A stretch of DNA of 19,393 nt, from the IMG/VR virus record IMGVR_UViG_3300018432_000003, positions 1-19,393 of that record; one strand, written 5' to 3'. The translations under genes were made by a program, and so were the position numbers. Source of the stretch: a virus. Its lineage: Duplodnaviria > Heunggongvirae > Uroviricota > Caudoviricetes. Positions 3,195-19,393 of this stretch are shown here, one piece after another. A model generated the notes under the pieces. The model saw nothing but the letters and a program-made list of their open reading frames with translations. It made no database searches and had not been told where the DNA came from. Position 1 is the stretch's first letter; the number at the start of each line of letters is the position of its first letter.

Positions 3195-4361
3195 AGTACC
3201 TCCTTCCTCAATTCCTTTATCGTCGTTTACACTCTCGTCCGGGGTTACTCCCTCGAACTCCCCGGCTGAGAGGTCGATTGTCTCATCGTCCGGGTCAATT
3301 CCTGCCTTGACTGCCTCCCACGCACCCATCTCACCTAGGCGCGGGAAGTGTGTTCCTGCAACGTGCAAGAGCGTCGGGCCGTAGTACTTGCCTGTGCTCG
3401 GATGCACGAAGTTCGGGTGTACTTTCACGCTCACACCGAACTCAGGGTTGTGCTCTACAATCTTCTTCGCCTCATCAGTGAGTGAGAAGTCTGCATACAT
3501 CTTCGTAGGGTTCTCTTCGTCGTCCAGTGATAGGGAAGTCACCCTGCCAGCGTAGTCCCTCGGGTGGTCCGTGCCAGCATTGCTCTGGTGTAGGAACTGG
3601 AATGGTACGTACGCGAACGGCTTCTCTTTCCAGTTTGCGTATGCCTTCTTCAGCATCTCTGCCGTGAATCGTACCTTCCTACCTTGGTAATTGATGTCAC
3701 CAACTCTCCAGATTTCCTTGCGGAATGTACCGTCTGCACTCGCTGTCGCGGCATTACCCAACTCAACGACTGGTAGACGGAGCGCAAGCTCTGGCGCTGC
3801 TGACAACTCCATAATATCTAACCACTTGTTTGTGTCCACTTCTGTGTTCACCCCCTCCCCCCAATCATCGGACAACTCTATGATGGCATAGTCCATAAAC
3901 ATCTCGTCAGAGAGGGCGATGCTCTCAGTGATTTCCTTGCCGTCTGCACGGCGCTGTACGCGCCTCTTGGCCTTCTCAAGTTCCAGTATGTCAATCTCAC
4001 CCTCTGCTGCGGCGAGAATCATACCATCAATGAACTCTTCTGACGCCTTCGCCTTCCTCTTCTCCCACTGTGCCACTGCGCTGCATGCTGCGGTCTGTAC
4101 GGCCTTAGAAACGCTGACCTTACCGCCGAATGCCTTGCCGGTTGCACACGTTTTCTTCGCCCAATTGACTGCCGTCGCAATAACCCTGCTTATACTCCAG
4201 CCTGGGTTCTCGCGTAGGATTGCAGTCGCAACACTGTTGATGTATGTAGGTAGGCCACCATTCTTCTCCACCCAATTCTTCAAGGGTGAGAGATTAAGCT
4301 GACCCTTGCGCTCGGGATGGAGGGCTGGTACACCGCCAGCTAGTTCAATCACTGTTGTCAT
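2673..4361 (-). CDS. Capsid maturation protease (Mu gpI-like) fused to an N-terminal helical domain and a C-terminal scaffold
   Basis: 562 aa; ATG overlaps the portal stop (ATGA). Central FRKEIWRVG...LHQ...YAGRV...GVSVKV...LLHVAGTHFPRL is typical of Mu-like prohead protease. Acidic coiled-coil C-terminus. Confidence 0.85.
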   Translation of the reverse strand: MTTVIELAGGVPALHPERKGQLNLSPLKNWVEKNGGLPTYINSVATAILRENPGWSISRVIATAVNWAKKTCATGKAFGGKVSVSKAVQTAACSAVAQWEKRKAKASEEFIDGMILAAAEGEIDILELEKAKRRVQRRADGKEITESIALSDEMFMDYAIIELSDDWGEGVNTEVDTNKWLDIMELSAAPELALRLPVVELGNAATASADGTFRKEIWRVGDINYQGRKVRFTAEMLKKAYANWKEKPFAYVPFQFLHQSNAGTDHPRDYAGRVTSLSLDDEENPTKMYADFSLTDEAKKIVEHNPEFGVSVKVHPNFVHPSTGKYYGPTLLHVAGTHFPRLGEMGAWEAVKAGIDPDDETIDLSAGEFEGVTPDESVNDDKGIEEGGTMADKTDEKNEQTFDLSAVMESDAFKDALKLAVDAQTEDLRKKNEALETKVQEQQKAGYSATVKAAVNTYRNAGVPPIVLDYAEALMLSLDESQRNEAIELSVGSGDDAKDVKLNPVQLITKMLDETKGAIDLGVEKGTGEDPDETDLSSEKVQDDAAAYLADLAHLEYETVES

Positions 4362-5866: not shown

Positions 5867-5869
5867 TCA

Positions 5870-7471
5870 TTAACTCCTGTACAGTTCGTAGTTGTAATCG
5901 AATGCTGCCACCAGTTCATTGTCGTCGCCCTCTGCTGCGTTGTCGTTGTAGGCGAACTGTGCGACTGCATCTCTCTCAACCCTAGGCTGGTCACTCCCGT
6001 AGAATGCCATAATCAGTGCCTCAAGTTCGTCCGGGGAGAACCCATGCTTAGCACGTAACTTCTCCTTGCTGTCAATCTGCACCTTACCGTTACCGTCAGG
6101 ACGCCACGTTATCACTGCGGCCTGTTTCTCCACTTGCTCTCTCACGTTGTTATCGAGGGCAGACATGTCAACCCTAAACTCCTGCAAGCGGAGCCTGAAC
6201 TGCCAGTACGCCTCTGCCTTCTTGTTAGTGAAGAAGTTCTCGCGTATCGGCTTAGCCTGTGCTATGAATGGACGGAACCTCAGATTCCTGTACCGAGGGT
6301 CACTCTTCTTGTGCTTCTGTGCATACTTGTATATAATCTGACCAGGACCAACCGCGTCAATCTGTACTAGGTTTGGCATGTACTGGTCTACCCACCTGTA
6401 TAGGCTCGGTGCCATCGGGTTACTCTCTGCGATGACTAGTTCAGACGTGTCAATCTCCTGCCAGCCTACCAAGTCCAACACCTTACCGCCATCACGGTAT
6501 GCCAAGGCGTTGTTGTCAGCACCACCGGCTGCAACGTCGAATCCGAATGTACCGTCACCTACTGCTAGGTCCGGTAGCCCCTTAACCAACTCAGGGCCAT
6601 CTGCGGTGTCCACTATGATGTCCTCAGTCTCGTAGTTGAATGCACGCTCCAACCACGCGAGCGGGAACATAGACATACCACCAGTCTTGGGGAACTCACC
6701 CAGAATACGAATCTGGTACATTGGGGAGTTCACACCCCACTCGTGCTTCTTCTGCTCTACGAACTCAGCAGTCACGAGGCCGTCCACGACCTTGCGACCC
6801 GCCTTCACGTTCGGAGTGTCGTAAGCACTAATCTTTATCGTTTTCTTGACTCCCTTCTTGTTAGGGAGCTTGCACTTCCTTGCAAAAGGACTCTCAGGGT
6901 CATTCGGGTTACCGATTGCAAGCAGGCGGTCCTCTTGGAAGTCAGTGAGGTTACCGTCGATTGAACCCCATATCTCTTCGTTGTCGATACCGCTCGCCTC
7001 GTCAACTACCACTAGCACCTTACCGTGGTAACCCTGGAAACGCTCAGGCTGTCGTGTAGACAACCCTTCCGCGAATACGTCAGGACCAACGTCCAGTCTA
7101 CTCTGCAAAGGCTTCATGCCTAGTACTGGTGCCTTCTGGCACTGCACTGCAATCTTACTCCACAGGATGCTCTTAACCTGACGCCACGTTGGGGCAGTCG
7201 TTATGACCTTACCGTTACGTGTTGACAGCCACCATATCACAATGCCAGCAGCCAACCACGACTTCCCGGCAGAGTTACAGGACTGTACGTAGGTTTCCTT
7301 GTTCAGCAGGAGTGAGTCGAGAATCTCTTCCTGTCTCTCCCACGGCTCCCACTTTAGTACGGTCTTGAAGAAGTATGCAGGGGATGCCCTCCACTTTCGT
7401 ATGAGGTTCTTCTCGCCGTCAGAGAGTCCCTTCCGCTTCCTGCTGTCTGAGAACATTGCATTGGTTGTCAT
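5870..7471 (-). CDS. terL: Terminase large subunit
   Basis: 533 aa. Walker A VQSCNSAGKS, ITTAPTWRQV, Walker B VLVVVDEASGI, coupling motif IGNP, RILGEFP, nuclease motif GFDVAAGGADNN, C-terminal SPDELEAL. Confidence 0.95.
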   Translation of the reverse strand: MTTNAMFSDSRKRKGLSDGEKNLIRKWRASPAYFFKTVLKWEPWERQEEILDSLLLNKETYVQSCNSAGKSWLAAGIVIWWLSTRNGKVITTAPTWRQVKSILWSKIAVQCQKAPVLGMKPLQSRLDVGPDVFAEGLSTRQPERFQGYHGKVLVVVDEASGIDNEEIWGSIDGNLTDFQEDRLLAIGNPNDPESPFARKCKLPNKKGVKKTIKISAYDTPNVKAGRKVVDGLVTAEFVEQKKHEWGVNSPMYQIRILGEFPKTGGMSMFPLAWLERAFNYETEDIIVDTADGPELVKGLPDLAVGDGTFGFDVAAGGADNNALAYRDGGKVLDLVGWQEIDTSELVIAESNPMAPSLYRWVDQYMPNLVQIDAVGPGQIIYKYAQKHKKSDPRYRNLRFRPFIAQAKPIRENFFTNKKAEAYWQFRLRLQEFRVDMSALDNNVREQVEKQAAVITWRPDGNGKVQIDSKEKLRAKHGFSPDELEALIMAFYGSDQPRVERDAVAQFAYNDNAAEGDDNELVAAFDYNYELYRS

Positions 7472-8016
7472 GCACCCTCGTCCTCATATATGACCTCAGC
7501 ATCCTCAATGACCTCATCCTCGCGGTGGACTTTCGCTTGGTCCATCGGAGACATGTTATCGAACTCACCGGACGCCTGCGCCCTCTCCATCATGTCACGG
7601 ATTGTATCCTGTGGGATTTCCCCGTGCATCGTAGGTGCCTCGTGACCGCCTAGCTTGTCCAGCCTAGTAGCCGCCTGTATAGCAGCCTCGAACGACTTAG
7701 CCTGCAAGAGTGCTGGATGACCCTGCGGGTTCTCCATAATCTCAGTGGCCTTCTCCAATATGAACCTGTATACTGCGATGTTCGCCATCTTGCTGTCGCC
7801 ACCAGTGGCACGCTCGAATGCCGCGTGCTCGTTGATGAGAGTCTGTGCGCTCTCCCTGTTCAGACCGTGGTCACGTGCGAGTGCGCTCACGCTCTTCCCT
7901 TTGGCGTTCTCAAGGAACAGGTCGTAACCTAGTTCCGCTCTCTCGTCCAGCGTAAGGTCACGTAGTCTAGTCGTGGCCGGTAAATCCTGCTGACTCATCT
8001 TACTCTGCTCTCCCAA
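7468..8016 (-). CDS. terS: Terminase small subunit
   Basis: 182 aa with an HTH (KSVSALARDHGLNRESAQTLINE), helical core and acidic tail. Stop overlaps the terL start (ATGA). Confidence 0.75.
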   Translation of the reverse strand: MGEQSKMSQQDLPATTRLRDLTLDERAELGYDLFLENAKGKSVSALARDHGLNRESAQTLINEHAAFERATGGDSKMANIAVYRFILEKATEIMENPQGHPALLQAKSFEAAIQAATRLDKLGGHEAPTMHGEIPQDTIRDMMERAQASGEFDNMSPMDQAKVHREDEVIEDAEVIYEDEGA

Positions 8017-8477
8017 TGAGGTATCTGTTTAGAGAATAGGTCCTGTATGACTTTCATCTCGTTCCGCTTAACTATGTCCAGGTTCTCAGTTACGTGCTTT
8101 CTGAATCTCTTCCACTTGGACCTATCCGACCCGCGTTCCTGTCCTTTGACCTCGATGTAAGCCACTTCACCGGGAAGGGGATGGAGTCCGCACTCTGGAA
8201 GTAGCTGTGCAATCTTCTTCTTACTAGTGTTCGTCCATCGTACGACGAAATCTGGACGGTAGGTAAAGGGTCCACGCTTGTATTCGAGGTTCTGAAAAGT
8301 GAACTCTTGGGGTTCATACTCCCATCCATCTATGACCCCTCTGACGACCAGAAGATTGAGGAATCTGGCAAAGTCTCGCTCCCATCCTGATGCAAACTTA
8401 GTGGGTCCGAGGTCTGGGGCTGCTCCCTTCTTAACATTCCCATACTTAGCGTTCCGTCGTCTATTCCCATTTCCCAT
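7995..8477 (-). CDS. PD-(D/E)XK endonuclease (DUF1064-like)
   Basis: 160 aa: NAKYGNVK...FASGWERDFARFL...WEYEPQEF...YRPDFVV...IEVKG...KWKRF. Contains PD and E-x-K catalytic motifs; overlaps the terS start. Confidence 0.75.
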   Translation of the reverse strand: MGNGNRRRNAKYGNVKKGAAPDLGPTKFASGWERDFARFLNLLVVRGVIDGWEYEPQEFTFQNLEYKRGPFTYRPDFVVRWTNTSKKKIAQLLPECGLHPLPGEVAYIEVKGQERGSDRSKWKRFRKHVTENLDIVKRNEMKVIQDLFSKQIPHWESRVR

Positions 8478-8590
8478 AGGGCTATCTCTTCCTCAATTTC
8501 CTGTCTAGCGGAGTACCTCTCGCTACTGCCGCCGTAGGTGTCTTTTGGTCCGAACGTCGGGTCGGTCTGGTCCTTGCGGGTGTTAGACAT
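8330..8590 (-). CDS. Hypothetical protein
   Basis: 86 aa with AAGGAG upstream at long spacing (13 nt). The 3' half overlaps the nuclease gene by 148 nt, so only the N-terminal half is independently supported. Confidence 0.45.
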   Translation of the reverse strand: MSNTRKDQTDPTFGPKDTYGGSSERYSARQEIEEEIALWEMGIDDGTLSMGMLRREQPQTSDPLSLHQDGSETLPDSSIFWSSEGS

Positions 8591-8609
8591 CGTAGTTCAG
8601 TTATTCTCC

Positions 8610-9149
8610 TTATGCACCGAGCAAGTCGTGGTTCCACGTGATTGTCAGTGTGTCGCCAGCACCCTTGTCGAATGATGTGAGCACTGCACGTGCAATCGTG
8701 TTTGCTGCGGTACCCGCCACGTTAGTGATTGGGGTTTCGTTAGTGATTACAACTTCCTGAATACCAGTGTCGGTTGCGACACCAGCAGCCCAGGTGCTAA
8801 CCCATGCTATGCGCCTTGCAGTGCCAGCGCCTCCAGGCTGTGAACTCGTCGGTCCTGATGAAATCGCCACCTGTGAGGCAGTGATGTACGTGCCGATGAA
8901 TGCACCAGCGCCAGTCTTTGCGGCAGCGGTGCTGCTCTTGCCTAGACGCATACCAGTCACTTGGTTCGGCGGTGAGCCGATGCCAGCCGCACGCTCTGCA
9001 TAGTACTGGTCGCCAACGTCGGTAATCCTGTTGATTACTTCCTCATAATGCTTCAGCTTACCGCGCTGGTCGAATAGCTCTACTACTACTAGTCCTTTGA
9101 TACCTACTTCGTCCTCTGGTGTCCAGAGTTCTCTCTTACTCGTCGTCAT
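8610..9149 (-). CDS. Putative virion structural (tail/fibre-associated) protein, about 179 aa
   Basis: Start revised from 9332 to ATG 9149 (GTG 9152 possible) to avoid overlapping the 70-aa gene. Pattern GLVVVELFD...NRITDVG..YYA...MRLG...AAAK...KGAGDTLTITW resembles common small phage tail proteins. Confidence 0.7.
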   Translation of the reverse strand: MTTSKRELWTPEDEVGIKGLVVVELFDQRGKLKHYEEVINRITDVGDQYYAERAAGIGSPPNQVTGMRLGKSSTAAAKTGAGAFIGTYITASQVAISSGPTSSQPGGAGTARRIAWVSTWAAGVATDTGIQEVVITNETPITNVAGTAANTIARAVLTSFDKGAGDTLTITWNHDLLGA

Positions 9150-9348
9150 CACGATTGATGTACACCCCTTCCGAATCTGTCTCCCACTCCGGGCCGGGGC
9201 CTTTAATCTCGTAGTCCACTTCCTCACCAGTTGCGGCTTCCGCCTCCTGCTTGCGGAGGTACTCATCGCGCCACTTCCACTGCTTTCCGGGACCTTTGAC
9301 TTCGACCTCAACGCCGTCAGCGAGAGTAGCATTGTCCGTATTGTCCAT
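9136..9348 (-). CDS. Hypothetical protein (70 aa, acidic, internal EVKGPG/EIKGPG duplication)
   Basis: AAGGAG SD; ATG immediately follows the upstream TAA. Confidence 0.6.
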   Translation of the reverse strand: MDNTDNATLADGVEVEVKGPGKQWKWRDEYLRKQEAEAATGEEVDYEIKGPGPEWETDSEGVYINRDDDE

Positions 9349-9744
9349 TTACGCTCCTTGTGTTACGCTCACTGTGAACTTCCACTTGCCCTCGGCTACG
9401 GTCCACACGTCGCCGGTCAGCCCCTTGACTTGTACATCGCAGAATAGCGTTAAGTCGGCGGTGATGGGCCTTAATGCATCCAAGTCCTCACGGTTGACCT
9501 TAACGTAGACGAGGTTATCCTCCACGGTAATCTCACCGTCAGTTAGTGTCTTGCTCAGTACTGCGTCGGCGTCGTCGTCAGTTTTCAGACGCTTACCAGT
9601 GAACCACACCTCCAACGCACCAGTCTCCACTGGATACGGGTCACCAGCAGTCACACCGAGTTCCGGTACGGCTACAGGGTAGGTGGCGGTGAACTTCGCA
9701 GTCCTGTCGTTATTCGAATTTGTCTTGAAACTGAAGTTCGCCAT
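9349..9744 (-). CDS. BppU N-terminal-like (baseplate/fibre adaptor) protein
   Basis: 131 aa, TAATG-coupled to the 1068-aa gene. Beta-rich with VYVKVNREDL...LFCDVQV...WTVAEGKWKFTVSVT, the usual layout of BppU-like Ig domains. Confidence 0.6.
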   Translation of the reverse strand: MANFSFKTNSNNDRTAKFTATYPVAVPELGVTAGDPYPVETGALEVWFTGKRLKTDDDADAVLSKTLTDGEITVEDNLVYVKVNREDLDALRPITADLTLFCDVQVKGLTGDVWTVAEGKWKFTVSVTQGA

Positions 9745-12700
9745 TACGGTTCAATCACCCCTGTCGCAGATGGTATGCCTAGTAGTTGTCCTATTGCGTT
9801 CGGGCTACCGAGTAGCTCAGCCTGCGCAGTGGGTATGGCAATCAATTCCGCCGTCATGAACGGTGCGACTGTGAACCCAATGACTCTCCACTCTACACCG
9901 TCTGCCAACCCTAGTGTGTCAGTGACATCAATGAACTTGCCGACTGCCTTGCCAGTGTCATCCGTAACCGTGATTACGTCAGTGAGATTCCTCACTATGT
10001 TCTTGATGTATTCCTGGTTGTCAATCAACCCTAGCTCGTCGGTAATAGTCCACGCTAGGTGTGAAATCTTGCTGACTGCATCAGACATGCCCAAGGTGTC
10101 AGTCCGCACTATGTGTACGTCCTTAGTCCTGCTGTCTACTATGCCCACACTGTCAGTTACAGTGCGTGCAATGAGCCTGAACTTCTCGTCGTCAGCTACG
10201 TCGGTGATACCCAACGTGTCGTTGATTGTGCGCTGTATGAACGATGTCTTTACCGGCAACGTAGAATCAGCAACACCTAACGTGTCTAGGATTATACGGT
10301 TACGGGTCATCGTCTTTGTCAGTGTGTCGCTTATACCTATGCTGTCGTTGATTCCCTTAGCGATGGCCTTCGTGACTACCCTGCTGTCCTGTATGCCGAG
10401 CGTGTCGTTGACGTTCTTCACTACGTTCTTAATGACAACCCTGCTGTCTGTGACTCCGAGGTTATCTGTTATTGTACGTGTGATTATGAGTAGCAACTGC
10501 TTGCTCGCGCTGTCAGTTATACCCAACGAGTCGCTTACGGACTTCACGTACGCCTGTGACTTCAAAGTAGAATCCGTCATACCCAAGGTGTCATTCACCA
10601 CACGGGCCACTCCTTTAGAGAGAACCCTGTTGTCGGTGATGCCTAGGTTGTCGGTGATGCTCTTCGCAACCGTACGTACTACAGTCCTGCTGTCACCGAT
10701 ACCCAAGGTGTCAGTGATTGCACGCTGTACAGTCCTCACTAGTGCTCTGCTGTCTGTGATGCCTAGTGCGTCTGTGACACTCTTAGATATCACAGTAGTG
10801 ATTGCCGGGGTAGCGACATCCACTATACCCATACTGTCGGTGAGTATGCGTGTCCTAGTCATGCTCTTGTTTGCGGTGTCAGTGATGCCTAGCGCATCAG
10901 TCACACTCTTAGGCATGGTTTTCGCTCTAGTTGCCACGTCGAGCACACCGAGAGAATCGGTGATTGCACGCTGCACTGTTCTAGTGACAGTCCTGCTGTC
11001 CGTCATCCCTAGTGCATCTGTGATGGCACGTGTCAAGGTTCGCGTGACAGTCCTACTGTCTGTGATGCCAATACTGTCAGTTACAGTGAAGGACTTGCCT
11101 CTCTCCTGCGTCCTGCTGTCGTTGATACCCAACGTGTCAGTCACACTCTTCGGTAGGGTCCTAGCCCTATCCTGCGAGTCACTCAACCCTAGTGCATCCG
11201 TCACTGCCTTCGCTACGGACTTCACCGTATTCGCACTATCTGACAACCCTAGGGTGTCGGTGATAGTCTTAGTGATGGCTTGCACTTGCGTGAGTTCTGC
11301 GTTCCACTCGACTGCATCGAATTCAACTGCGCCACCTGGGACACCAGTGCCGATGAGCCATACTTCGGCGTTGTTCTTGTCGGTGAACACATTGTTATTG
11401 AAGAACCCACTGAGTACAGTTACCGTACCTGACGACGTTACTGCCGTGTCCGGTATTGGTGTCGCAAGTACAGTCCCACTTGCGTTCTCGTGTATCTCAG
11501 CGCGTACAGTCGGATTACCCGCACCTGAGTCCGGTGTACCCTTCCTGTTCACTGCCAGTCTAATCTCACCACTGCTGGCACCGCTTGCGAGTCCTCCCGC
11601 TGGATTACCTAGCAATACCTCCGCCTTGGTATTTAACGTAGTACCTGGGATTATGTACGTCACAGTCACCTGTACACGGTACAGTTCCAAGGTGGCCGAG
11701 TTCGACCTACGCCATCTCAACCTGATACCGAACGTACCAGACACTAGCTGTGCCCTGGTGGGTACGGCATTCAAGGCAGGCACGGTGTTTGCACCGTAAT
11801 CAGCTACCGTAGTACCTAGGGGTGTTCCACCGTCTGCCTGTCCTTCAGCGCCTATGACGGTACCGCCGTTTGCGGTCATGGCCTGCATGAACAGAGATAT
11901 CCTGTTGTTTGTGGTCGCCCTAGCCCTAACCCTGAGAGTCATACCAGTTATCACCGCATTCGCTGGCAAACCAGTGAAGTCAGCAGCAGGGAACTGGAAG
12001 TATCTACCGTAGTCTACGTTGTTAGTTGCCGGTGCGTGAGTAGCGGCAGTAGCGTCCGACGTATCGAACACGTTCGCCTCGCTCGTCAACGTAGTTGCAG
12101 TGAATCCCGTCACCGCCAGTGATGGTGTGTTCGGGTCCTGTGCAGGGTGAGTACCACCACTCCCCGTAGGGTCTGCTAACGTCAACGGGTCCAGCAATGT
12201 AGACTGGTCCGGGTCCTCCGCCAAAGCAGCAGCAGCCGGGGGGTCTACATTCGGATTATACGCTGCCGACACGTTCCTAGTGGCAGTCGGCCTCATCGTT
12301 TCCCTGCTAGGTTCCAACGCAAACGTCATAGCGTGGCTGTTCGCACTAACATCTATAGTGAAATTACCAGGGTCCTCAGATGTTGCTGCCAGTTCTCTGA
12401 AAGCCCAAGCCATCGCCTGCGCTGCACCGTGACTAGTTGTTATGCTCCCGGTGTTGACGTAACCACTCGGGAATCCTGTGAAAGTCCTCGTGCCTGCGTT
12501 AGCAGTGGAGAACGCCAACCAGAGATATTCCTTCAACCCGAACGACGGTATCAAGTTCGGTGGGTCCGGTGTAGTAGTACCTATGAATGAACCAGCAGCC
12601 TCTAAGTTACCAGACCATCCACGCAGTCTGAACACTACCACTGAGGGGTCGCCCGCAGCAGCAGGAGTCTCTATGTTTATACCTTCAGTGGCAGATATAG

Positions 12701-12950
12701 CACCAGTGACAGGAACCATGTATGCTCCGAAGTACACCTGAGTGCCGTTACGTAGTGAGTACTTTTTCTCAGCAGCAAGTGTGTCGAAAGTAATTGGGTC
12801 GTCACTGACCTGACCTTTCACACCTATGCATATTAGGAGTTTCTCTCCTATGACAGAACCAGTGTCCAGGTTTATGTTGTATTCCGCTTGGCTGAACGTC
12901 CCTGTTGGCAGGGTTAATGCTGGCGTGCCCTGTAACTGTGGGTGTGCCAT
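9744..12950 (-). CDS. Large putative tail fibre/adhesin with globular N-terminal domains and a 20-aa repeat shaft
   Basis: 1068 aa, GGGAGG SD, no signal peptide. Thr/Ala/Gly-rich beta domains in aa 1-560, then tandem TD-x-LG-x-x-D repeats. Confidence 0.7.
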   Translation of the reverse strand: MAHPQLQGTPALTLPTGTFSQAEYNINLDTGSVIGEKLLICIGVKGQVSDDPITFDTLAAEKKYSLRNGTQVYFGAYMVPVTGAISATEGINIETPAAAGDPSVVVFRLRGWSGNLEAAGSFIGTTTPDPPNLIPSFGLKEYLWLAFSTANAGTRTFTGFPSGYVNTGSITTSHGAAQAMAWAFRELAATSEDPGNFTIDVSANSHAMTFALEPSRETMRPTATRNVSAAYNPNVDPPAAAALAEDPDQSTLLDPLTLADPTGSGGTHPAQDPNTPSLAVTGFTATTLTSEANVFDTSDATAATHAPATNNVDYGRYFQFPAADFTGLPANAVITGMTLRVRARATTNNRISLFMQAMTANGGTVIGAEGQADGGTPLGTTVADYGANTVPALNAVPTRAQLVSGTFGIRLRWRRSNSATLELYRVQVTVTYIIPGTTLNTKAEVLLGNPAGGLASGASSGEIRLAVNRKGTPDSGAGNPTVRAEIHENASGTVLATPIPDTAVTSSGTVTVLSGFFNNNVFTDKNNAEVWLIGTGVPGGAVEFDAVEWNAELTQVQAITKTITDTLGLSDSANTVKSVAKAVTDALGLSDSQDRARTLPKSVTDTLGINDSRTQERGKSFTVTDSIGITDSRTVTRTLTRAITDALGMTDSRTVTRTVQRAITDSLGVLDVATRAKTMPKSVTDALGITDTANKSMTRTRILTDSMGIVDVATPAITTVISKSVTDALGITDSRALVRTVQRAITDTLGIGDSRTVVRTVAKSITDNLGITDNRVLSKGVARVVNDTLGMTDSTLKSQAYVKSVSDSLGITDSASKQLLLIITRTITDNLGVTDSRVVIKNVVKNVNDTLGIQDSRVVTKAIAKGINDSIGISDTLTKTMTRNRIILDTLGVADSTLPVKTSFIQRTINDTLGITDVADDEKFRLIARTVTDSVGIVDSRTKDVHIVRTDTLGMSDAVSKISHLAWTITDELGLIDNQEYIKNIVRNLTDVITVTDDTGKAVGKFIDVTDTLGLADGVEWRVIGFTVAPFMTAELIAIPTAQAELLGSPNAIGQLLGIPSATGVIEP
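9900..11270 (-). repeat. About 23 imperfect tandem 20-aa (60-nt) coding repeats
   Basis: Units such as KTITDTLGLSDSANTVKSVA / KAVTDALGLSDSQDRARTLP / KSVTDTLGINDSRTQERGKS. A few units are 18 or 22 aa. Confidence 0.9.
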
Positions 12951-12959
12951 ACTGCCTCC

Positions 12960-15092
12960 CTAGAAGTTATCGTGGCAGTATACCTTACCGTTATTGAACC
13001 CTGCTGCCGTCTTGCACCCTGCCGTTATGTCAGTACCGTTGAATCTTACCTTCTCACTGCCGATGTTATTGTTGTATGCCTCTGCATTAAGCATGTCAGT
13101 CCTGTGGTCTGCTCCATCACTGAACTGCAACGCCCTCAGATTAGGGCCGTACGACACTCCACCGAAGGTAGCCGCACCGAAAGTGTTACCCCTCGCAGTG
13201 CAGTTCTGTGCGTCGTGGCATATGAATCCTGCTCCGTCACTTGCGTTGAATCCATTACCAGCGAACACGTTGTTCTCAATCAGTGAAGTCTCTGCTGTAG
13301 ATACCTGACCAGGGTCAAGTTGAGGACTGAACTCGTAACGAACACCGCTCCTACCGTTGTTGGCGAATGCACTGTCATGAATCCAGTAACCGTTCGTGCG
13401 TGCTGCGATGTTGTCGCAACCAACGTCACACCACAACCCTACTGCGGGGTTATCGTGTACCCATACCCTGTCGAACTCTGCTTCCTTAACGCTCTTACCT
13501 ACACTCGATGCCCAACCCCATGCATTCGGGTCGTACCCGCAGTTAGTGAACTCAGACCTACGTACAATCCCCGACATACCGGCGATGCACTGCACTGGTC
13601 CGTCCTTCACTTCCACGTGGTCTAGCACCGTCCCTGGTCCAGACTCGCCTAGTCCCAACACGTTACCGCTGCCTGTTACAATGCAGTAATCTGGTCCTGG
13701 GTTCCTGTCCGTGCAGCGAGGGTCGTCGAACGCCACGTCAGTCATTAGCTGGTGGTGTCCAGTCCATTCGTGCCACGTCATTGTGAAGTTTGCACCAGTC
13801 TGCGCTGTAAGCATCCTAGTAATCGTCGGTCCTGGGTCGGAAGTGTAGATATGCACACCGTTGTTAGGGTCAACCCCTGGTCCCTTCGGTGAGGTAGTTC
13901 CAGGTTGTCCCTCGAAGAAGTCACCTTCCTGCGCTACCACTGTAGTGCTGCCAGTGTTGTAGTCTCCATTCTCAACGCAGAAGTGTGCGCCCGCTGGTGT
14001 GTTATTTACGATAGATGCATAATCATCACCATTGCGTATCTTAGTACCCTCGCAAGTGTCAATCCATGCCTGCTGAGGAACACCGCCTACGTTAGTGTTG
14101 TTCTGTAGTGTAGTCCCACAGCCGTTTGCACACAACTGAATCCTGTCACCACCGAGGTCATTGTTAGACACTAGGTTGTTGGAGTTCACAGGTGCTCTTG
14201 CATCATCCAGTATTCTTATGCCTTGTCCGTTGTTCAACTCAGTGTGTCCGTCGAATGTGTTGTTGTTAACAGTCACGTCACTGGCTGAATTGATTAAGAA
14301 CCCTAGGTGTTGATTAGCTGGAGCCAGCCACCCATTAGATGTGAAGGTGTTTCCTTCAATCAGACAAGTGTTCAAGCAGTCAGTGATTTCAACTGACACC
14401 CCACCCTTGCCATTGTTAGTGAAGTCTGAATTCTGAATGTCAAAGTCGTCACACTGGATGTCGCACCATGCACCCATCCACCTGTTGTCCTTGACATCTA
14501 CATTATCGAGAGTTGCTGAACTTACAGTCTTGAGTCCCGCCGCTGATACTGGACCTTCACTCTCTCCTGAGAATACGGTGCTGCCGTTTGCATCAAGAAT
14601 AGAGTCTTGTATCAACAACCCTGGTCCGGTTCCGCCAACTCCTTGGTTCTCGTTACCAGTCGCTCTTACATCCTTGATTGTAAGGTTACTGCCTCCACCG
14701 CCGATTCCACGCCCACAGTCTGGTGAGCAGTCCTCATTACCCACAGCGCCAGTGACCGTCAACCCTTGTATCAGGGCACCACTGCCACTGCTAGTGTCGA
14801 AGATGTGCTGTGCCGTAGTGGTCGAAACCCTCGGCCTAGTGTTGTCAGAGTATGCGCCAATCCACTGGTCACCATTCTGTACAGGTATATCACTGTCAAC
14901 AGTGTACCTTCCGTCACGCAGACAGAATAAGCTACCAGCCTCTCGGTTGTTTGCTACGTTAACGAGATTACTCCCGGATGATACGTTCGGTGTACATGCA
15001 GTTGGGGGTTTTGGTGCGGCTACAGCGGTCGCTGCAAAGAGTAGGGAAGTGCAGATGATAAGAATGAATACAAGTAGTACGCGCTTCGTCAT
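12960..15092 (-). CDS. Secreted protein with two right-handed parallel beta-helix (pectin lyase-like) domains, 710 aa
   Basis: Start revised to ATG 15092 (GAGGTG upstream) because the track start lies in tRNA-Gln. Signal peptide MTKRVLLVFILIICTSLLFAATAVAA. Asn/Gly ladders and many Cys. The two halves begin similarly (...AGSLFCLRDGRY / ...AGAHFCVENGDY). Confidence 0.85.
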   Translation of the reverse strand: MTKRVLLVFILIICTSLLFAATAVAAPKPPTACTPNVSSGSNLVNVANNREAGSLFCLRDGRYTVDSDIPVQNGDQWIGAYSDNTRPRVSTTTAQHIFDTSSGSGALIQGLTVTGAVGNEDCSPDCGRGIGGGGSNLTIKDVRATGNENQGVGGTGPGLLIQDSILDANGSTVFSGESEGPVSAAGLKTVSSATLDNVDVKDNRWMGAWCDIQCDDFDIQNSDFTNNGKGGVSVEITDCLNTCLIEGNTFTSNGWLAPANQHLGFLINSASDVTVNNNTFDGHTELNNGQGIRILDDARAPVNSNNLVSNNDLGGDRIQLCANGCGTTLQNNTNVGGVPQQAWIDTCEGTKIRNGDDYASIVNNTPAGAHFCVENGDYNTGSTTVVAQEGDFFEGQPGTTSPKGPGVDPNNGVHIYTSDPGPTITRMLTAQTGANFTMTWHEWTGHHQLMTDVAFDDPRCTDRNPGPDYCIVTGSGNVLGLGESGPGTVLDHVEVKDGPVQCIAGMSGIVRRSEFTNCGYDPNAWGWASSVGKSVKEAEFDRVWVHDNPAVGLWCDVGCDNIAARTNGYWIHDSAFANNGRSGVRYEFSPQLDPGQVSTAETSLIENNVFAGNGFNASDGAGFICHDAQNCTARGNTFGAATFGGVSYGPNLRALQFSDGADHRTDMLNAEAYNNNIGSEKVRFNGTDITAGCKTAAGFNNGKVYCHDNF

Positions 15093-15133
15093 ATACACCT
15101 CGAAAACTGAATGATAGTATTGAACAATGAAAG

Positions 15134-15208
15134 TTGCACCGGAAGGAATCGAACCTTCGACATTGTGGTTCAAAGCCACAACACCAATGCCAGCATAGTA
15201 ACAGTGCA
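15134..15208 (-). tRNA. tRNA-Gln(TTG)
   Basis: Acceptor TGCACTG/CGGTGCA, anticodon arm TGTGG-CTTTGAA-CCACA, T-loop TTCGATT; no CCA. Confidence 0.9.
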
Positions 15209-15213
15209 ATGCG

Positions 15214-15581
15214 GATTATACTTGGGTATAGGCGGGGTTCTGTATTAACCTAGCATCCATCTGAGCCTCTACCCGTTTCCTATGTAGGCCATTTTCTTGG
15301 GCAAGAAAACGGTCGCATACAGGAAACTGTTTGAGTTGCACACGCCGGAGATTGCCTGCGTCATGGTATTACCCACAACCCTGCCCTTGTTCGGTGCGCT
15401 TGGCACCATCTCGGCTGGACAGCTTTCAGTAAGTGCCTACCTTACCTTCTCTCTGTTGCTCTTATCGTCTACAGCCATCACTGACTGCATCCCCACCTTA
15501 TTAGGGTGAGCGGTTTTAGTGTGCCCCGACCTTCCTCGATAGGGGAAAGTCCCTACCGCGCTAGGAGAGCCAAGTATAATC
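15214..15581 (-). ncRNA. rnpB: RNase P RNA (bacterial type-A-like, lacking P18 and P19)
   Basis: 12-bp P1 (15570-15581/15214-15225). P2 CCTAGCG/TGCTAGG. P3 hairpin. P4 pseudoknot GAGGAAGGTCGGGGC ... ACAGAACCCCGCCTA with the bulged U. P5 CACAC/GTGTG. P8; P9 with GUGA loop. CR-II GCAACAGAGAG. P12 then TGAAAG. P13 GGTGC/GCACC. P14 with GTAA. GCAGGCAATCTCC. P15 CTC/GAG with L15 AAACA/GGGTA. P16/P17. AGATGGATG before P2. Confidence 0.92.
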
Positions 15582-15585
15582 TAAG

Positions 15586-15657
15586 TCGGCACGGTGAGAA
15601 TCGAACTCACGACTTCCGCTTTATCAGAACGGCGCTCTACCCCTGAACTACGTGCCA
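15586..15657 (-). tRNA. tRNA-Ile(GAT)
   Basis: Acceptor TGGCACG/CGTGCCG, D stem GTTC/GAGC, anticodon arm CCGTT-CTGATAA-AGCGG, TTCGATT; no CCA. Confidence 0.92.
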
Positions 15658-15857
15658 GTGCGTACTAAATCTTCCCTGTCGAATACAGGCTCCCAATCCT
15701 CATCCACTAAGGTGACCGATGGATACCCTGCAATGTGCAAGAACCCTCCGGTAGTGGAGATGACGGGCTGTATGCTATTCTTAGGGAAAGTCTTGTTAAT
15801 CATCATCTTGGCTCGGAGCAACCGCACCCTAAATTGCATGGGTTCGTGGTCGCTCAT
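15648..15857 (-). CDS. Hypothetical protein (69 aa)
   Basis: AAAGGA SD. Fills the spacer between tRNA-Gly and tRNA-Ile; the TAG stop is positions 8-10 of tRNA-Ile. Confidence 0.65.
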   Translation of the reverse strand: MSDHEPMQFRVRLLRAKMMINKTFPKNSIQPVISTTGGFLHIAGYPSVTLVDEDWEPVFDREDLVRTGT

Positions 15858-15891
15858 ATCGGGTGGTCCTTTCCAAGTGATGTACTAAAAG

Positions 15892-15963
15892 AAGGGCATA
15901 CGAGAGTCGAACTCGTGACACTTGGGTGGAAGCCAAGTACGTTACCAGCTACGCCAATGCCCC
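15892..15963 (-). tRNA. tRNA-Gly(TCC)
   Basis: Acceptor GGGGCAT/ATGCCCT, U73, anticodon arm CTTGG-CTTCCAC-CCAAG, TTCGACT; no CCA. Confidence 0.92.
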
Positions 15964-16170
15964 AAATTGTGAGTCATACATGAATGATGCATCAGCGACT
16001 CCATTAGCCGCCTTGTTCTTTCCTTCTTCCTTCAGAACCTCAGCTACGGTCCCTGCCGTGATGTTCGGTCCATATCGCGTGACTATACGTAGGTTCCTTA
16101 CTGCTGCCTTGTTCTCTTCCGAGAGTTGGGCCTCCACATCCTTGTAGAGTACCGTATCCTCAACACCCAT
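15949..16170 (-). CDS. Hypothetical protein (73 aa)
   Basis: AAAGGA SD; stop TAG lies in the D arm of tRNA-Gly(TCC). Confidence 0.7.
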   Translation of the reverse strand: MGVEDTVLYKDVEAQLSEENKAAVRNLRIVTRYGPNITAGTVAEVLKEEGKNKAANGVADASFMYDSQFGALA

Positions 16171-16193
16171 AGTATAATCCTTTCGATTGTGAG

Positions 16194-16265
16194 TGTGGCT
16201 TACGGGAATCGAACCCGTCTTTCAGCGTTGGCAACGCCACGTAATAGCCGATATACCAAAGCCAC
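16194..16265 (-). tRNA. tRNA-Gly(GCC)
   Basis: Acceptor GTGGCTT/AAGCCAC, anticodon loop TTGCCAA with a weak stem (two G-U pairs), TTCGATT; A73; no CCA. Confidence 0.85.
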
Positions 16266-16268
16266 ATA

Positions 16269-16517
16269 TTACCAGAACTTCCACCAAGGTGTGGTCGCTT
16301 CCTTCCACAACCTCTCTGCAAGTCGTCTTGTGTCGTCATACTCAATGAATGAGTAGTAGGGTCGTTCCCCTTCCCATCCTTGCCGGAAGAACACTCGTAT
16401 GTGGTCGCCCCTGTCCTCTGACCCGTCCATGTGCATGTACATCATGCGGTGCCAGTTCAGGACCTCGATGCGCCCATACTTTTCGAGTGTATCCTTATGT
16501 AAGTCTACGTACCACAT
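16269..16517 (-). CDS. Hypothetical protein (82 aa, aromatic-rich)
   Basis: Exactly fills the Arg(CCT)-Gly(GCC) spacer; ATG 2 nt after the tRNA discriminator. Confidence 0.7.
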   Translation of the reverse strand: MWYVDLHKDTLEKYGRIEVLNWHRMMYMHMDGSEDRGDHIRVFFRQGWEGERPYYSFIEYDDTRRLAERLWKEATTPWWKFW

Positions 16518-16519
16518 AG

Positions 16520-16593
16520 CCTTCCTAGTAGGAGTCGAACCTACGGCCTACCGCTTAGGAGGCGGTCGCTCTGTCCATCTGAGCTATAGGAAG
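16520..16593 (-). tRNA. tRNA-Arg(CCT)
   Basis: Acceptor CTTCCTA/TAGGAAG, D stem GCTC/GAGC, anticodon arm ACCGC-CTCCTAA-GCGGT, TTCGACT; G73; no CCA. Confidence 0.93.
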
Positions 16594-16881
16594 TCACTTG
16601 TGCGTGAACATGCTCTCAAGGATTTGGTACCAACCCTCGTCGCTCTGTATCACGTCTTGCTGTATTAGGACGGGGTACTCGGTCAGTACTATGACCCAAC
16701 GTAGAGTCTGCATGTCTTTCCAACTCCATCGTATGTGCCAACCCTTATACTTCTCGGGGATGATGTAGTCCAACCAGCTTGCACCCTCTGGGAGTTCTTC
16801 CTTCCACTCAGGCTTAGGCCAGCGACGGTACTCGTCCTCTGGGAACTCAATTACCACTATGTCGTCTGTTATCTCTATCAT
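16594..16881 (-). CDS. Hypothetical protein (95 aa, Trp-rich)
   Basis: Start revised to ATG 16881 (MIEITDDIVVIEF...), since the track start is inside tRNA-Arg(TCT). Stop abuts tRNA-Arg(CCT) with a 0-nt gap. Confidence 0.7.
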   Translation of the reverse strand: MIEITDDIVVIEFPEDEYRRWPKPEWKEELPEGASWLDYIIPEKYKGWHIRWSWKDMQTLRWVIVLTEYPVLIQQDVIQSDEGWYQILESMFTHK

Positions 16882-16883
16882 AG

Positions 16884-16956
16884 CACGCCCCGTAGGAATC
16901 GAACCCACATAATCCAGCTTAGAAGGCTGGCGCATTCTCCGTTCTGCCAGAGGCGC
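16884..16956 (-). tRNA. tRNA-Arg(TCT)
   Basis: Acceptor GCGCCTC/GGGGCGT, anticodon arm CCAGC-CTTCTAA-GCTGG, TTCGATT; G73; no CCA. Confidence 0.92.
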
Positions 16957-16959
16957 ATG

Positions 16960-17121
16960 TTATCTACAGCAGCAACACTTGCACTTGCAAGTACTGTTTG
17001 CTTCCTCTACTTCTTTCGGTGTGACGACCCTGCCGCACGATAGGCACTTCAATTCAAGAATTGCCTCAGCGCCAGTTCGTCCCTTGGTCACCATCTCCAC
17101 ATTGTCATGTTTGCAACTCAT
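16960..17121 (-). CDS. Cys-rich small protein, 53 aa (not in ORF track)
   Basis: MSCKHDNVEMVTKGRTGAEAILELKCLSCGRVVTPKEVEEANSTCKCKCCCCR. ATGA-coupled to the upstream gene; stop 3 nt before the tRNA. Confidence 0.7.
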   Translation of the reverse strand: MSCKHDNVEMVTKGRTGAEAILELKCLSCGRVVTPKEVEEANSTCKCKCCCCR

Positions 17122-17348
17122 ACTTGGAGTATCACTTGATACTTCTGCCGTATGAACTGGACTTGCACTGCAAGCTCGATGTTGTTGTCCTCGATTTTAC
17201 CTACAGTCCAACTAGGTCCGAACATCTCTGACAGTGTGCGTATCGCCTTAGTCTGCTTATCCTGCCAGTCAACTTCATTCTTAGGGAAGAAGCTGTACGG
17301 TATGCGTACAATCCTACTGTCGAATACGCTTATTGTCGTGTTATCCAC
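17118..17348 (-). CDS. Hypothetical protein (76 aa)
   Basis: GTG start overlaps the upstream stop by 8 nt; the TGA is coupled to the next ATG. Confidence 0.65.
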   Translation of the reverse strand: MDNTTISVFDSRIVRIPYSFFPKNEVDWQDKQTKAIRTLSEMFGPSWTVGKIEDNNIELAVQVQFIRQKYQVILQV

Positions 17349-17514
17349 GTGCTCTCAGCACCGCCTTAACCCAAGCTATCGGAACGTACCATCCTTCACC
17401 ACGCACATGGTAGCTGTCGGGTTTCCTGTTCAGCAGACCCAACGCCCTAAGTGCGGTACACACATAGTGGTACTTGTGTCCTCTGAATCTCGCGTCCTCC
17501 GGTATACGCATCAT
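17341..17514 (-). CDS. Hypothetical basic protein, 57 aa (not in ORF track)
   Basis: MMRIPEDARFRGHKYHYVCTALRALGLLNRKPDSYHVRGEGWYVPIAWVKAVLRARG; ATG 2 nt after the tRNA-Arg(ACG) discriminator. Confidence 0.65.
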   Translation of the reverse strand: MMRIPEDARFRGHKYHYVCTALRALGLLNRKPDSYHVRGEGWYVPIAWVKAVLRARG

Positions 17515-17516
17515 AG

Positions 17517-17588
17517 CCTGTCTCCCAGGAATCGAACCCGGATTTGAGCGTTCGTAGCGCCCCGCACTCTCCGTTGTACTAGAGACAG
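17517..17588 (-). tRNA. tRNA-Arg(ACG)
   Basis: Acceptor CTGTCTC/GAGACAG, anticodon arm GGGCG-CTACGAA-CGCTC, TTCGATT; G73; no CCA. Confidence 0.92.
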
Positions 17589-17592
17589 ATTG

Positions 17593-17778
17593 TTATAGAG
17601 GGTTGACAATGACCCTCACTTTCTGTTCATCGTACACCTGACCGTCCTCATCCTTTATCGTCTGAACTGCGTTGGCGTCCAAGCTGTCCAGAGCAAAGAG
17701 ATGGAGGGGCTTATGGTTGTCGATGTACACCGTAAGGTTTCCATTATAGTGCCGCTCTATTTCTATTATGTGGTCCAT
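17593..17778 (-). CDS. Hypothetical protein (61 aa)
   Basis: Fills the Lys(CTT)-Arg(ACG) spacer; ATG 2 nt after the discriminator. Confidence 0.65.
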   Translation of the reverse strand: MDHIIEIERHYNGNLTVYIDNHKPLHLFALDSLDANAVQTIKDEDGQVYDEQKVRVIVNPL

Positions 17779-17780
17779 AG

Positions 17781-17849
17781 TGAACTGCCAAGGAATCGAA
17801 CCTTGCCTCCTGAGATTAAGAGCCTCTGATGCGTGCCACCGCGCAGTCC
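17781..17849 (-). tRNA. tRNA-Lys(CTT), atypical (69 nt, shrunken D arm)
   Basis: Acceptor GGACTGC/GCAGTTC, T arm CAAGG-TTCGATT-CCTTG, anticodon GAGG-CTCTTAA-TCTC. D arm is only GCG-GTGGCA-CGC. Confidence 0.7.
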
Positions 17850-17852
17850 ATG

Positions 17853-18011
17853 TTATTGGTTCTGAAACTTCTCGTCGTCGAACGCCCTGTCCACTTGCTT
17901 GAGCAACTTGATTGCAGCCTCCACCATCGTCTTGACTGGCTCGCCGTAACCGTAGTGTTCACTGCTGTCCTGCTGTACTAGTTCAATTGCCTTCTCAATC
18001 TTTGTCTTGAT
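17853..18011 (-). CDS. Hypothetical protein, 52 aa, apparent ATC start (not in ORF track)
   Basis: AGGAGG, then 5 nt, then ATC AAG ACA AAG...: (M)KTKIEKAIELVQQDSSEHYGYGEPVKTMVEAAIKLLKQVDRAFDDEKFQNQ. An in-frame TAG lies just upstream; the ORF fills the spacer between the two Lys tRNAs. Confidence 0.55.
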   Translation of the reverse strand: MKTKIEKAIELVQQDSSEHYGYGEPVKTMVEAAIKLLKQVDRAFDDEKFQNQ

Positions 18012-18027
18012 GACTGCCTCCTATAAG

Positions 18028-18097
18028 AGAGCCGTGCAGGAGTCGAACCCGCCTTCTGAGATTAAAAGCCTCGTGAGGTCCACCAGACCGACGGCCC
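18028..18097 (-). tRNA. tRNA-Lys(TTT), atypical (70 nt, 5-nt D loop)
   Basis: Acceptor GGGCCGT/ACGGCTC, D arm GGTC-TGGTG-GACC, anticodon GAGG-CTTTTAA-TCTC, T arm GCGGG-TTCGACT-CCTGC; U73. Confidence 0.75.
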
Positions 18098-18100
18098 ATG

Positions 18101-18334
18101 TCAACCCTTCTTCTCCAACAACTGTATGTTGAACTTCTGGGTTTTGTTGTTGTAGAACGTGAACTGGCTTATGTCAGTGCCGTCCAACCCCATCTCGTCA
18201 ACTACGTCCGCAATCTCTCGCAGTATATCAGTGAATGCCTCCTTGCTGCCCTCGAAGTCTATCTTCCGGGTTATGGTGAACCCTTGCATGTAGAACGTCC
18301 GATTGCCTATGGGTGGAAGTTTTTCTTCACTCAT
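18101..18334 (-). CDS. Hypothetical protein (77 aa), probably leaderless
   Basis: Start revised to ATG 18334 (MSEEKLPPIG...); the track extension runs through two tRNAs. ATG lies 6 nt after the -10 box and there is no SD. Confidence 0.75.
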   Translation of the reverse strand: MSEEKLPPIGNRTFYMQGFTITRKIDFEGSKEAFTDILREIADVVDEMGLDGTDISQFTFYNNKTQKFNIQLLEKKG

Positions 18335-18340
18335 AACTAC

Positions 18341-18369
18341 ATTATACCATACTTTCAGTGGTTTGTCAA
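18341..18369 (-). promoter_or_regulatory. Consensus sigma70/SigA promoter with extended -10
   Basis: TTGACA (18369-18364), a 17-nt spacer ending TGG, then TATAAT (18346-18341): perfect -35, -10, spacing and TGn. Confidence 0.9.
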
Positions 18370-18376
18370 GTGGGAG

Positions 18377-18448
18377 AGCATCTACCGGGAGTCGAACCCA
18401 GGACTGGTCCGTACCAAGGACCCGTTTTACCACTAGAACTATAGATGC
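18377..18448 (-). tRNA. tRNA-Thr(GGT)
   Basis: Acceptor GCATCTA/TAGATGC, anticodon arm GGTCC-TTGGTAC-GGACC, TTCGACT; no CCA. Confidence 0.92.
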
Positions 18449-18495
18449 GGGTGCGAGGGCAACACGCGGTTTGGGCCGCGCCCCTCGCATGTGAG

Positions 18496-18568
18496 TGGAG
18501 ATACAGGGACTCGAACCCTGAATACTGCGGTGCAAGCGCAGCGTGTTCCCAATTAGCACTATATCCCC
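18496..18568 (-). tRNA. tRNA-Ala(TGC)
   Basis: Acceptor GGGGATA/TATCTCC with the G3-U70 Ala determinant, anticodon arm CTGCG-CTTGCAC-CGCAG, TTCGAGT; A73; no CCA. Confidence 0.93.
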
Positions 18569-18641
18569 ATGTGCCCCGAGTTTTGATTACTGGATACGGG
18601 GTGAACCAGATTGCTACGCTACCGTCGCACGTAACTCTAAG

Positions 18642-18712
18642 AGCATCCTACCGGAGTCGAACCGATACCAACTGCGTACGAAGCAGCCGCAATCCCATTA
18701 TGCTAAGGATGC
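18642..18712 (-). tRNA. tRNA-Thr(CGT)
   Basis: Acceptor GCATCCT/AGGATGC, anticodon arm GCTGC-TTCGTAC-GCAGT, TTCGACT; no CCA. Confidence 0.9.
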
Positions 18713-18833
18713 TGGTGGTAGCTCACTCACCCACTACCGCGCCTCTCGGCCCTCTCCCCTGCGTCACACCACTTCCTAGTAGGCCGATGGTTTCCTAGGA
18801 CGCTTCGACCGTTCGGGGTAGGTGTCACCCGAG

Positions 18834-18904
18834 AGCACGTAACAGGAATCGAACCCGTACCAGAGGTGTACAAAACCCCCGCAATACCATTATGCTATAC
18901 GTGC
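18834..18904 (-). tRNA. tRNA-Thr(TGT)
   Basis: Acceptor GCACGTA/TACGTGC, anticodon arm GGGGT-TTTGTAC-ACCTC, TTCGATT; D arm nearly identical to that of Thr(CGT); no CCA. Confidence 0.9.
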
Positions 18905-19035
18905 TTACGTTCTTTCATTACTGCCAGTCCTACTGCGAGTGCAGAGCAGAACGAGAAGAGTATGGAATAACCCTCCGCTCTCTGCGCCTTGTAGGTGCCC
19001 TCCGCGAGAGTCGCCGCCAATTCTATCGGGTTCAT
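18895..19035 (-). CDS. Small protein with a hydrophobic segment, 46 aa (not in ORF track)
   Basis: MNPIELAATLAEGTYKAQRAEGYSILFSFCSALAVGLAVMKERKHV; ATGA-coupled; TAG is positions 8-10 of tRNA-Thr(TGT). Confidence 0.55.
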   Translation of the reverse strand: MNPIELAATLAEGTYKAQRAEGYSILFSFCSALAVGLAVMKERKHV

Positions 19036-19130
19036 CCCACAGGCTCCATGCAAGAGGGACAGCACCCAAAGTTCTCATCGACTTCCTGCTCGTCGAGTTC
19101 CTCACCGCAAACCTCACAGTACCAGTTCAT
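19032..19130 (-). CDS. Mini zinc-ribbon protein, 32 aa (not in ORF track)
   Basis: MNWYCEVCGEELDEQEVDENFGCCPSCMEPVG: CxxC...CPxC; ATGA-coupled at both ends. Confidence 0.65.
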   Translation of the reverse strand: MNWYCEVCGEELDEQEVDENFGCCPSCMEPVG

Positions 19131-19237
19131 CCGAACTCCTGATAGCTACGAAGCAACCACTTCAATCTCTCTGCGGCATCCTCGTCGCCAGCTAGAACCT
19201 TCTCAACCAACTCGTCTACGAACGTATAATCATTCAC
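19127..19237 (-). CDS. Small helical protein, 36 aa (not in ORF track)
   Basis: MNDYTFVDELVEKVLAGDEDAAERLKWLLRSYQEFG; GTGA-coupled to the upstream stop. Confidence 0.55.
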   Translation of the reverse strand: MNDYTFVDELVEKVLAGDEDAAERLKWLLRSYQEFG

Positions 19238-19392
19238 TTCTTGTTCTTGCTCCCCTTCTTGGGTCCTGGCTTACTCCCACGCTGTGACGGTGACTTCTTC
19301 TTCCGTCTAGGGTACTTGCGCTTTGAGGCTGACTTTGCCGCATTCTTGTTGCCCATCTTCTTGCCTTGGGCACCTTTCTTCACGCGACCAGA
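19234..19392 (-). CDS. C-terminal part of a highly Lys/Arg-rich protein (starts outside the window)
   Basis: ...SGRVKKGAQGKKMGNKNAAKSASKRKYPRRKKKSPSQRGSKPGPKKGSKNKK*; open to the window edge. Confidence 0.65.
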   Translation of the reverse strand, partial: SGRVKKGAQGKKMGNKNAAKSASKRKYPRRKKKSPSQRGSKPGPKKGSKNKK

Positions 19393-19393
19393 C

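Follow-up and report, generated by a model that had tools for sequence, protein, structure and literature searches.

The tRNA array and its trailers

The DNA analysed here, referred to as the window, comprises positions 1 to 19,393 of the virus record IMGVR_UViG_3300018432_000003 (Caudoviricetes), a complete genome of 95,940 nt with direct terminal repeats (G000). It carries 13 tRNA genes, located with ARAGORN and Rfam between positions 15133 and 18904 and all encoded on the minus strand, which share a peculiarity at their 3′ ends: when the transcribed strand is read, the discriminator base (N73) that follows the 7-bp acceptor stem is itself directly followed by C-T in 13 of 13 cases, and none of the genes encodes CCA. 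We refer to these two positions as C74 and U75. A single DNA sequencing run, that of a soil metagenome, contains the stretch and is possibly its source; among RNA runs, none was listed as containing it.

With ranges that include C74 and U75, whose positions are given in that order in brackets, the genes along the window are those for tRNA-Gln(UUG) at 15132-15208 (15133, 15132), tRNA-Ile(GAU) at 15584-15657 (15585, 15584), tRNA-Gly(UCC) at 15890-15963 (15891, 15890), tRNA-Gly(GCC) at 16192-16265 (16193, 16192), tRNA-Arg(CCU) at 16518-16593 (16519, 16518), tRNA-Arg(UCU) at 16882-16956 (16883, 16882), tRNA-Arg(ACG) at 17515-17588 (17516, 17515), tRNA-Lys(CUU) at 17779-17849 (17780, 17779), tRNA-Lys(UUU) at 18026-18097 (18027, 18026), tRNA-Thr(GGU) at 18375-18448 (18376, 18375), tRNA-Ala(UGC) at 18494-18568 (18495, 18494), tRNA-Thr(CGU) at 18640-18712 (18641, 18640) and tRNA-Thr(UGU) at 18832-18904 (18833, 18832). 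The trailers begin with CTT in five genes, CTC in four and CTA in four, and after the three tRNA-Arg genes and tRNA-Lys(CUU) an ATG follows U75 directly. Small open reading frames (ORFs) with an ATG straight after tRNA-N73-C-U also occur in two other loci (L012 and L014). Both the 13 CCA-less genes with CU and the list of their trailers had been put forward in a reading of the letters alone (the sequence-only reading); our coordinates agree with it and the third letters match exactly. Between tRNA-Ile and tRNA-Gln, as context and outside the motif, lies a gene for a type A-like RNase P RNA (15214-15577, minus strand).

The pattern extends across the complete genome, which has 34 tRNA genes in one array (15133-22380, all on the minus strand), again with no encoded CCA (0 of 34). 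C74 is present in 33 of these and C74-T75 in 31, so that position 75 is U in 31 of 34 genes and C in none. The three trailers without CT belong to a Met-CAT gene at 20581 and an Asn gene at 21200, which both read CAACA, and to an initiator-like Met gene at 21702, which reads TG. Given that CT has a frequency of 0.056 among the dinucleotides of the array as transcribed, at least 31 of 34 would be expected with P = 6e-36. Conservation ends at position 76, which is T in 16, A in 11, C in 5 and G in 2 genes, and the motif is shared by tRNAs for 20 amino acids whose acceptor stems are unrelated. It also occurs beyond the tRNA genes proper, since the transfer-messenger RNA (tmRNA) of the phage (acceptor end at about 21781) has discriminator A followed by C-T, and a tRNA-like structure at 30981-31056 on the plus strand has C-T after its discriminator. 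The CU that follows the tRNA genes is thus real and highly non-random.

Some further features of the array were noted. The tRNA leaders have A at -2 in 22 and U at -1 in 23 of the 34 genes, and many of the short spacers between adjacent tRNAs read C-U-U...A-C-A-A-Y-A-U. The tmRNA is a mini tmRNA (21773-22019, minus strand; 1773-2019 of locus L003) with a G3:U70 pair in the acceptor stem of which A is the discriminator, and the initiator-like tRNA-Met starts 8 nt past that discriminator. The tRNA-like structure at 30981-31056, on the strand opposite to the array, was assigned a 2-nt "anticodon" by ARAGORN.

C74 in bacteria and unrelated phages

CCA-less tRNA genes were counted in a broad sample of bacteria and in unrelated phages (loci L187-L246, L250-L279, L012-L014, L248 and L249). 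In Actinomycetota, C74 was found in 109 of 109 CCA-less genes, made up of 29/29 in Nocardioides, 31/31 in Streptomyces and 49/49 in mixed 8-kb loci from about 75 genomes, the latter not being independent as they are mostly one orthologous tRNA-Met. The same holds for a metagenome-assembled genome (MAG) of the Porphyromonadaceae (Bacteroidota, 12/12), an Oscillatoria MAG (Cyanobacteriota, 10/10) and, with one deviation, a Dormibacterota MAG (7/8). Three unrelated phages had C74 in all 34 genes, namely Rhodococcus phage Weasels2 (8/8), Arthrobacter phage Racecar (6/6) and Cellulophaga phage phi17:2 (20/20). Position 75 was mixed in every one of these non-Firmicutes sets. The two Firmicutes phages sampled carry U74 instead, with T74 in 10 of 12 genes of Enterococcus phage EFDG1 and TT in 3 of 3 of Bacillus phage C30-3. 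A downstream U is said to activate the RNase Z of B. subtilis (Pellegrini et al. 2012). Pseudomonas phage PaBG and Dehalococcoidia genomes mostly encode the full CCA.

The C after the discriminator is therefore the ordinary, genome-templated first C of CCA and not a phage-specific tag, and such partial templating is what CCA-less tRNA genes normally show in the non-Firmicutes bacteria and phages sampled. Without an encoded CCA, with C74 and with a CCA-adding enzyme of its own (see below), the phage shares three features of this templated-C74 class. Our literature search found no paper on the trailers of phage tRNA genes, and none in which C74 is given as a rule for bacterial genes without CCA; Ardell and Hou (2016, PMC5143459) count full CCA only. 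The counts given here caution against treating C74 as special; phages follow their hosts in this respect. The base after the discriminator, being C in the non-Firmicutes sets and U in two Firmicutes phages, may offer an inexpensive hint as to which lineage an uncultured phage infects, although C74 alone does not separate the non-Firmicutes phyla.

Related phages and the preference for U75

No cultured phage was matched by megablast of the array or by blastn of the RNase P RNA, and none is close, the capsid protein being 27-28% identical to actinophage capsids. A search for related loci with a 749-aa neighbour protein found none, and one with TerL yielded a single 6-kb contig without tRNAs. Uncultured relatives were reached through TerL homologues, the nearest full-length one being a 96-kb contig (P0003) with 83% TerL identity, and their tRNA arrays are syntenic with that of the phage. 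Five relatives were counted. At 87% TerL identity (L281), C74 occurs in 3/3 genes and C74-U75 in 3/3; at 61% (L280), the counts are 7/7 and 6/7; at 56% (L008, which lies within a MAG), 28/29 and 17/29; and at 50%, 13/13 and 11/13 in L015 but 12/16 and 7/16 in L010. Pooled over the six members of the clade, C74 is found in 96 and CT in 75 of 102 genes, so that C74 is a clade-wide feature.

U75 behaves differently. When only genes with C74 are considered, U follows in 31/33 in the phage, in 44/63 in the five relatives and in 75/96 over all six, as compared with 46/138 (about 33%) in the pooled sampled bacteria (p = 7e-11 for the latter against the 31/33 of the phage). The ratio of U to A at this position is 31:2 in the phage and 12:14 in Streptomyces (p = 6e-5), where the full distribution is A14 T12 G3 C2, while in Nocardioides it is C17 G6 A4 T2. 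The AT content does not account for this, as phage phi17:2, with 37% GC, has 45% U75, and neither it nor Weasels2, both AT-rich, shows an excess of U75. In all members of the clade, position 75 is U more often than any other base, but near-fixation is seen in some members only. We conclude that the preference for U75, unlike C74, is a property of this clade of phages.

Processing functions of the phage and its probable host

Among the genes of the phage is one for a class II nucleotidyltransferase (58435-59865) with Pfam PolyA_pol head, RNA-binding and HD domains and the motifs GGFVRD, RRDFTINA, EDPLR and ERIRDELCKML, the last of which fits the ERxxxExxxhh motif that marks full CCA-adding enzymes (PMC10673834). 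Its best family is TIGR02692 (tRNA_CCA_actino), matched over the full length with E 7e-83 and below the equivalog cut-off. The protein is an actinobacterial-type CCA-adding enzyme, which could supply the missing C and A. Directly upstream, within 57287-59865 (plus strand) and following a class II ribonucleotide reductase, a DHH/DHHA1-like protein is encoded, which has sub-threshold Pfam matches only and no NCBIfam match. A search of the complete genome found no Lactamase_B_2 (RNase Z) gene and no RnpA gene.

The RNase P RNA is of type A and matches the Rfam model over its full length (1-367; 76.6 bits, E 1.8e-23). Syntenic copies lie in the arrays of L008 (7948-8314; 134 bits, above the Rfam gathering score), L010 (4855-5242) and L015 (7875-8169). 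The latter, at 295 nt, is without the P15-P17 internal loop, that part of the RNA being shortened to a small segment in which GG is retained. The L15 sequence is CGGGU in the phage and in L008 and AUGGU in L010, so that GGU is retained in all three.

The best family of the CCA-adding enzyme, the nearest cultured relatives of the capsid protein and the presence of mycobacteriophage domain families (PF25735, PF23140) in the relatives make it probable that the host is an actinobacterium. Dehalococcoidia were considered as candidate hosts, since prophages in their chromosomes (L018-L028) have distant TerL proteins (33-35% identity to that of the window). Their tRNA genes encode CCA in 32 of 32 sampled cases and are therefore uninformative on CCA-less trailers.

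Interpretation of the CU motif

Of several explanations we favour one in which the phage conforms to the tRNA 3′-end pathway of its host, with C74 as the templated first letter of CCA and U75 as a preference of the clade, and to this we assign a probability of roughly 0.6. It draws on mapped 3′ ends in Actinomycetota. Differential RNA-seq in Propionibacterium acnes found cuts within encoded CCA "always between the Cs", and repair by nucleotidyltransferase was proposed (PMC3848588). Work of the same group on Streptomyces coelicolor, in which 53 of 65 tRNA genes are without CCA, found the between-Cs cut in most CCA-encoding tRNAs (PMC4681348). In the 12 CCA-less rows considered here from Table S4 of that study, the cut falls directly after C74 in all 12 (for example GCTc|tg, CGAc|tc and GTAC|ag), and in one also after N73; several of the sites are C|U. 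In M. tuberculosis, 32 of 45 genes are without CCA and need its "final or partial" addition (PMC10673834).

By analogy, the minus-strand array would be transcribed as long precursors, the 5′ ends of the tRNAs would be cut by RNase P behind leaders whose last two bases are mostly A(-2)U(-1), and a host endonuclease would cut at C74|U75, after which C75 and A76 would be added by the phage-encoded or the host CCA-adding enzyme. A host nuclease cutting at C74|U75, followed by addition of CA, is the most economical model. The role of U75 is probably either that of a preferred base at the start of the trailer, next to the cut, or that of keeping out CC, by which RNase Z is blocked (PMC7479834); release of downstream RNAs or a G-U wobble between U75 and L15 are further possible reasons. 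The sequence-only reading had named a signal for 3′ processing as the alternative to a substrate tag, and it is this alternative that we prefer. It had also held that CCA-less precursors need a nucleotidyltransferase together with RNase Z or exonucleases; of the two enzymes that it proposed to look for in the genome, the nucleotidyltransferase is encoded by the phage and RNase Z was not found.

Several points weigh against the favoured explanation. The comparison at position 75 covers sampled bacteria in place of the host itself, and the C74 rule rests on a limited sample of 1-3 genomes per phylum and about 10-37 tRNA genes per genome, with the 49 mixed actinobacterial cases being largely orthologues. 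The nuclease cutting after C74 is a putative host enzyme, and P. acnes reportedly is without RNase Z. The RNase E of mycobacteria prefers to cleave on the 5′ side of C (RN|CNU; PMC10641625), which would put the cut before C74 and not after it. Nor does the favoured explanation account for a U75 share of 94% in the phage as against about 60% in L008 and L010. The near-fixation in the phage and its closest relatives (31/33, 3/3, 6/7 and 11/13 of genes with C74) could stem from a special step without known counterpart in hosts, such as a phage-directed cut tuned to N73-C-U or a real kinetic advantage of a G-U wobble with the phage ribozyme. We consider this doubtful. A cut of that kind would release tRNAs, tmRNA, the RNase P RNA and small-ORF mRNAs without leaders together from a single precursor.

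At first sight the motif resembles a private code between the phage ribozyme and its substrates. The sequence-only reading had accordingly proposed a co-evolved substrate tag, in which C74-U75 pairs with the two L15 guanines (G-C plus a G-U wobble) and so marks phage precursors. The L15 GG is indeed kept, as GGU, in the ribozymes of the phage, L008 and L010. A syntenic RNase P RNA is present in these and in L015, with U as the commonest base at position 75 in each, U75 is far more frequent in the clade (75/96) than in the sampled bacteria (about 33%) or in phage phi17:2 (45%), and the G293-C74 pair is important in catalysis (PMC1874595). The C part of this proposal nevertheless fails. C74 is general in the sampled Actinomycetota, Bacteroidota and Cyanobacteriota, is found in 7/8 genes of Dormibacterota, and is equally kept in phages without a known ribozyme, so that it cannot mark phage substrates, nor does this C74-only state amount to a special pairing system; the controls make the C ordinary. 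The U part fares little better, since U75 does not follow the shape of L15: the same CGGGU goes with 94% U75 in the phage and 61% in L008 (Fisher p = 0.003), and L015, without the P15-P17 internal loop, still has 85%. Moreover, the identity of G292 matters by itself and not through pairing alone (PMC1874595), and the phage is without a gene for an RNase P protein, so that its ribozyme would use the host protein on host-like substrates. A ribozyme-specific tag is for these reasons unlikely. The sequence-only reading had added that the same CU bias in host genes would make the motif a host trait; the bacteria sampled share the C74 but, at about 33%, not the U75.

It is highly unlikely that U75 serves mainly as mRNA punctuation, with a cut at C74|U75 or just past U75 freeing the mRNAs of small ORFs and, in relatives, the 5′ end of the RNase P RNA, although the arrangement of the genes offers some encouragement. 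CT is followed by ATG after four tRNAs of the window (at 16518, 16882, 17515 and 17779, minus strand), where small ORFs start, and C+ATG, CT+ATG and CTT+ATG occur after tRNAs in relatives and actinophages, with annotated genes of the cultured actinophages Weasels2 and Racecar beginning 1-3 nt past C74. In L008 and L010, tRNA-A-C-U is immediately followed by the first position of the RNase P RNA model. If the cut falls after C74, the mRNAs of such small ORFs would have little or no leader. However, an ATG follows only 4 of the 31 CU trailers, most of which precede another tRNA or a spacer, so that punctuation cannot account for the near-invariance. A CU without function, whether inherited through gene duplication or due to composition, is extremely unlikely. 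Some isoacceptor families (three Arg, three Thr) may be paralogues with similar trailers, but the spread over tRNAs for 20 amino acids with unrelated acceptor stems, the loss of conservation from position 76 onward, the P value of 6e-36 against local composition and the AT-rich phages phi17:2 and Weasels2 without an excess of U75 all argue against it. What is left is the U75 preference of a clade that carries its own ribozyme, a modest and testable question on how 3′ processing sites are tuned.

Comparison with known systems

The interaction between the RCCA end and L15, known from E. coli and B. subtilis, involves the pairs G292-C75, G293-C74 and U294-R73, of which G293-C74 shows genuine Watson-Crick pairing and tolerates isosteric exchange (PMC1874595). 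The phage system is similar in that the ribozyme retains GGU and the substrates retain C74, but it differs at the next position, which is U in 31 of 34 genes and C in none, where the known interaction involves both C74 and C75; a wobble is thus the best that can be formed. The widely kept C74 may partly serve pairing with the equivalent of G293 in any type-A RNase P RNA, be it of host or phage.

Precursors of the Firmicutes type that are cut by RNase Z (B. subtilis; Streptococcus, PMC8549757) are likewise CCA-less, have a U near the cut and receive CCA later. Such substrates have a base other than C, usually U, at position 74 and are cut after the discriminator. Position 74 is U in the two Firmicutes phages, whereas the phage studied here has C74 in 33 of 34 genes and no RNase Z gene, and does not belong to this type.

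Other phages also combine a large tRNA set with a CCA-adding enzyme of their own, as in Cronobacter phage CR9 and Tunturiibacter phage Tunturi_5. The 381 phage records that match the enzyme do so with at most 38% identity and come from unrelated phages.

The closest likeness is to the CCA-less genes of Actinomycetota that are cut after C74 (PMC4681348, PMC3848588). Both have no CCA, a C74, a next base that varies but is frequently U and an actinobacterial-type class II CCA-adding enzyme available. They differ in that position 75 is mixed in Actinomycetota while U is nearly fixed in the phage, and in that the cut has been mapped in S. coelicolor and P. acnes, whereas in the phage we infer it.

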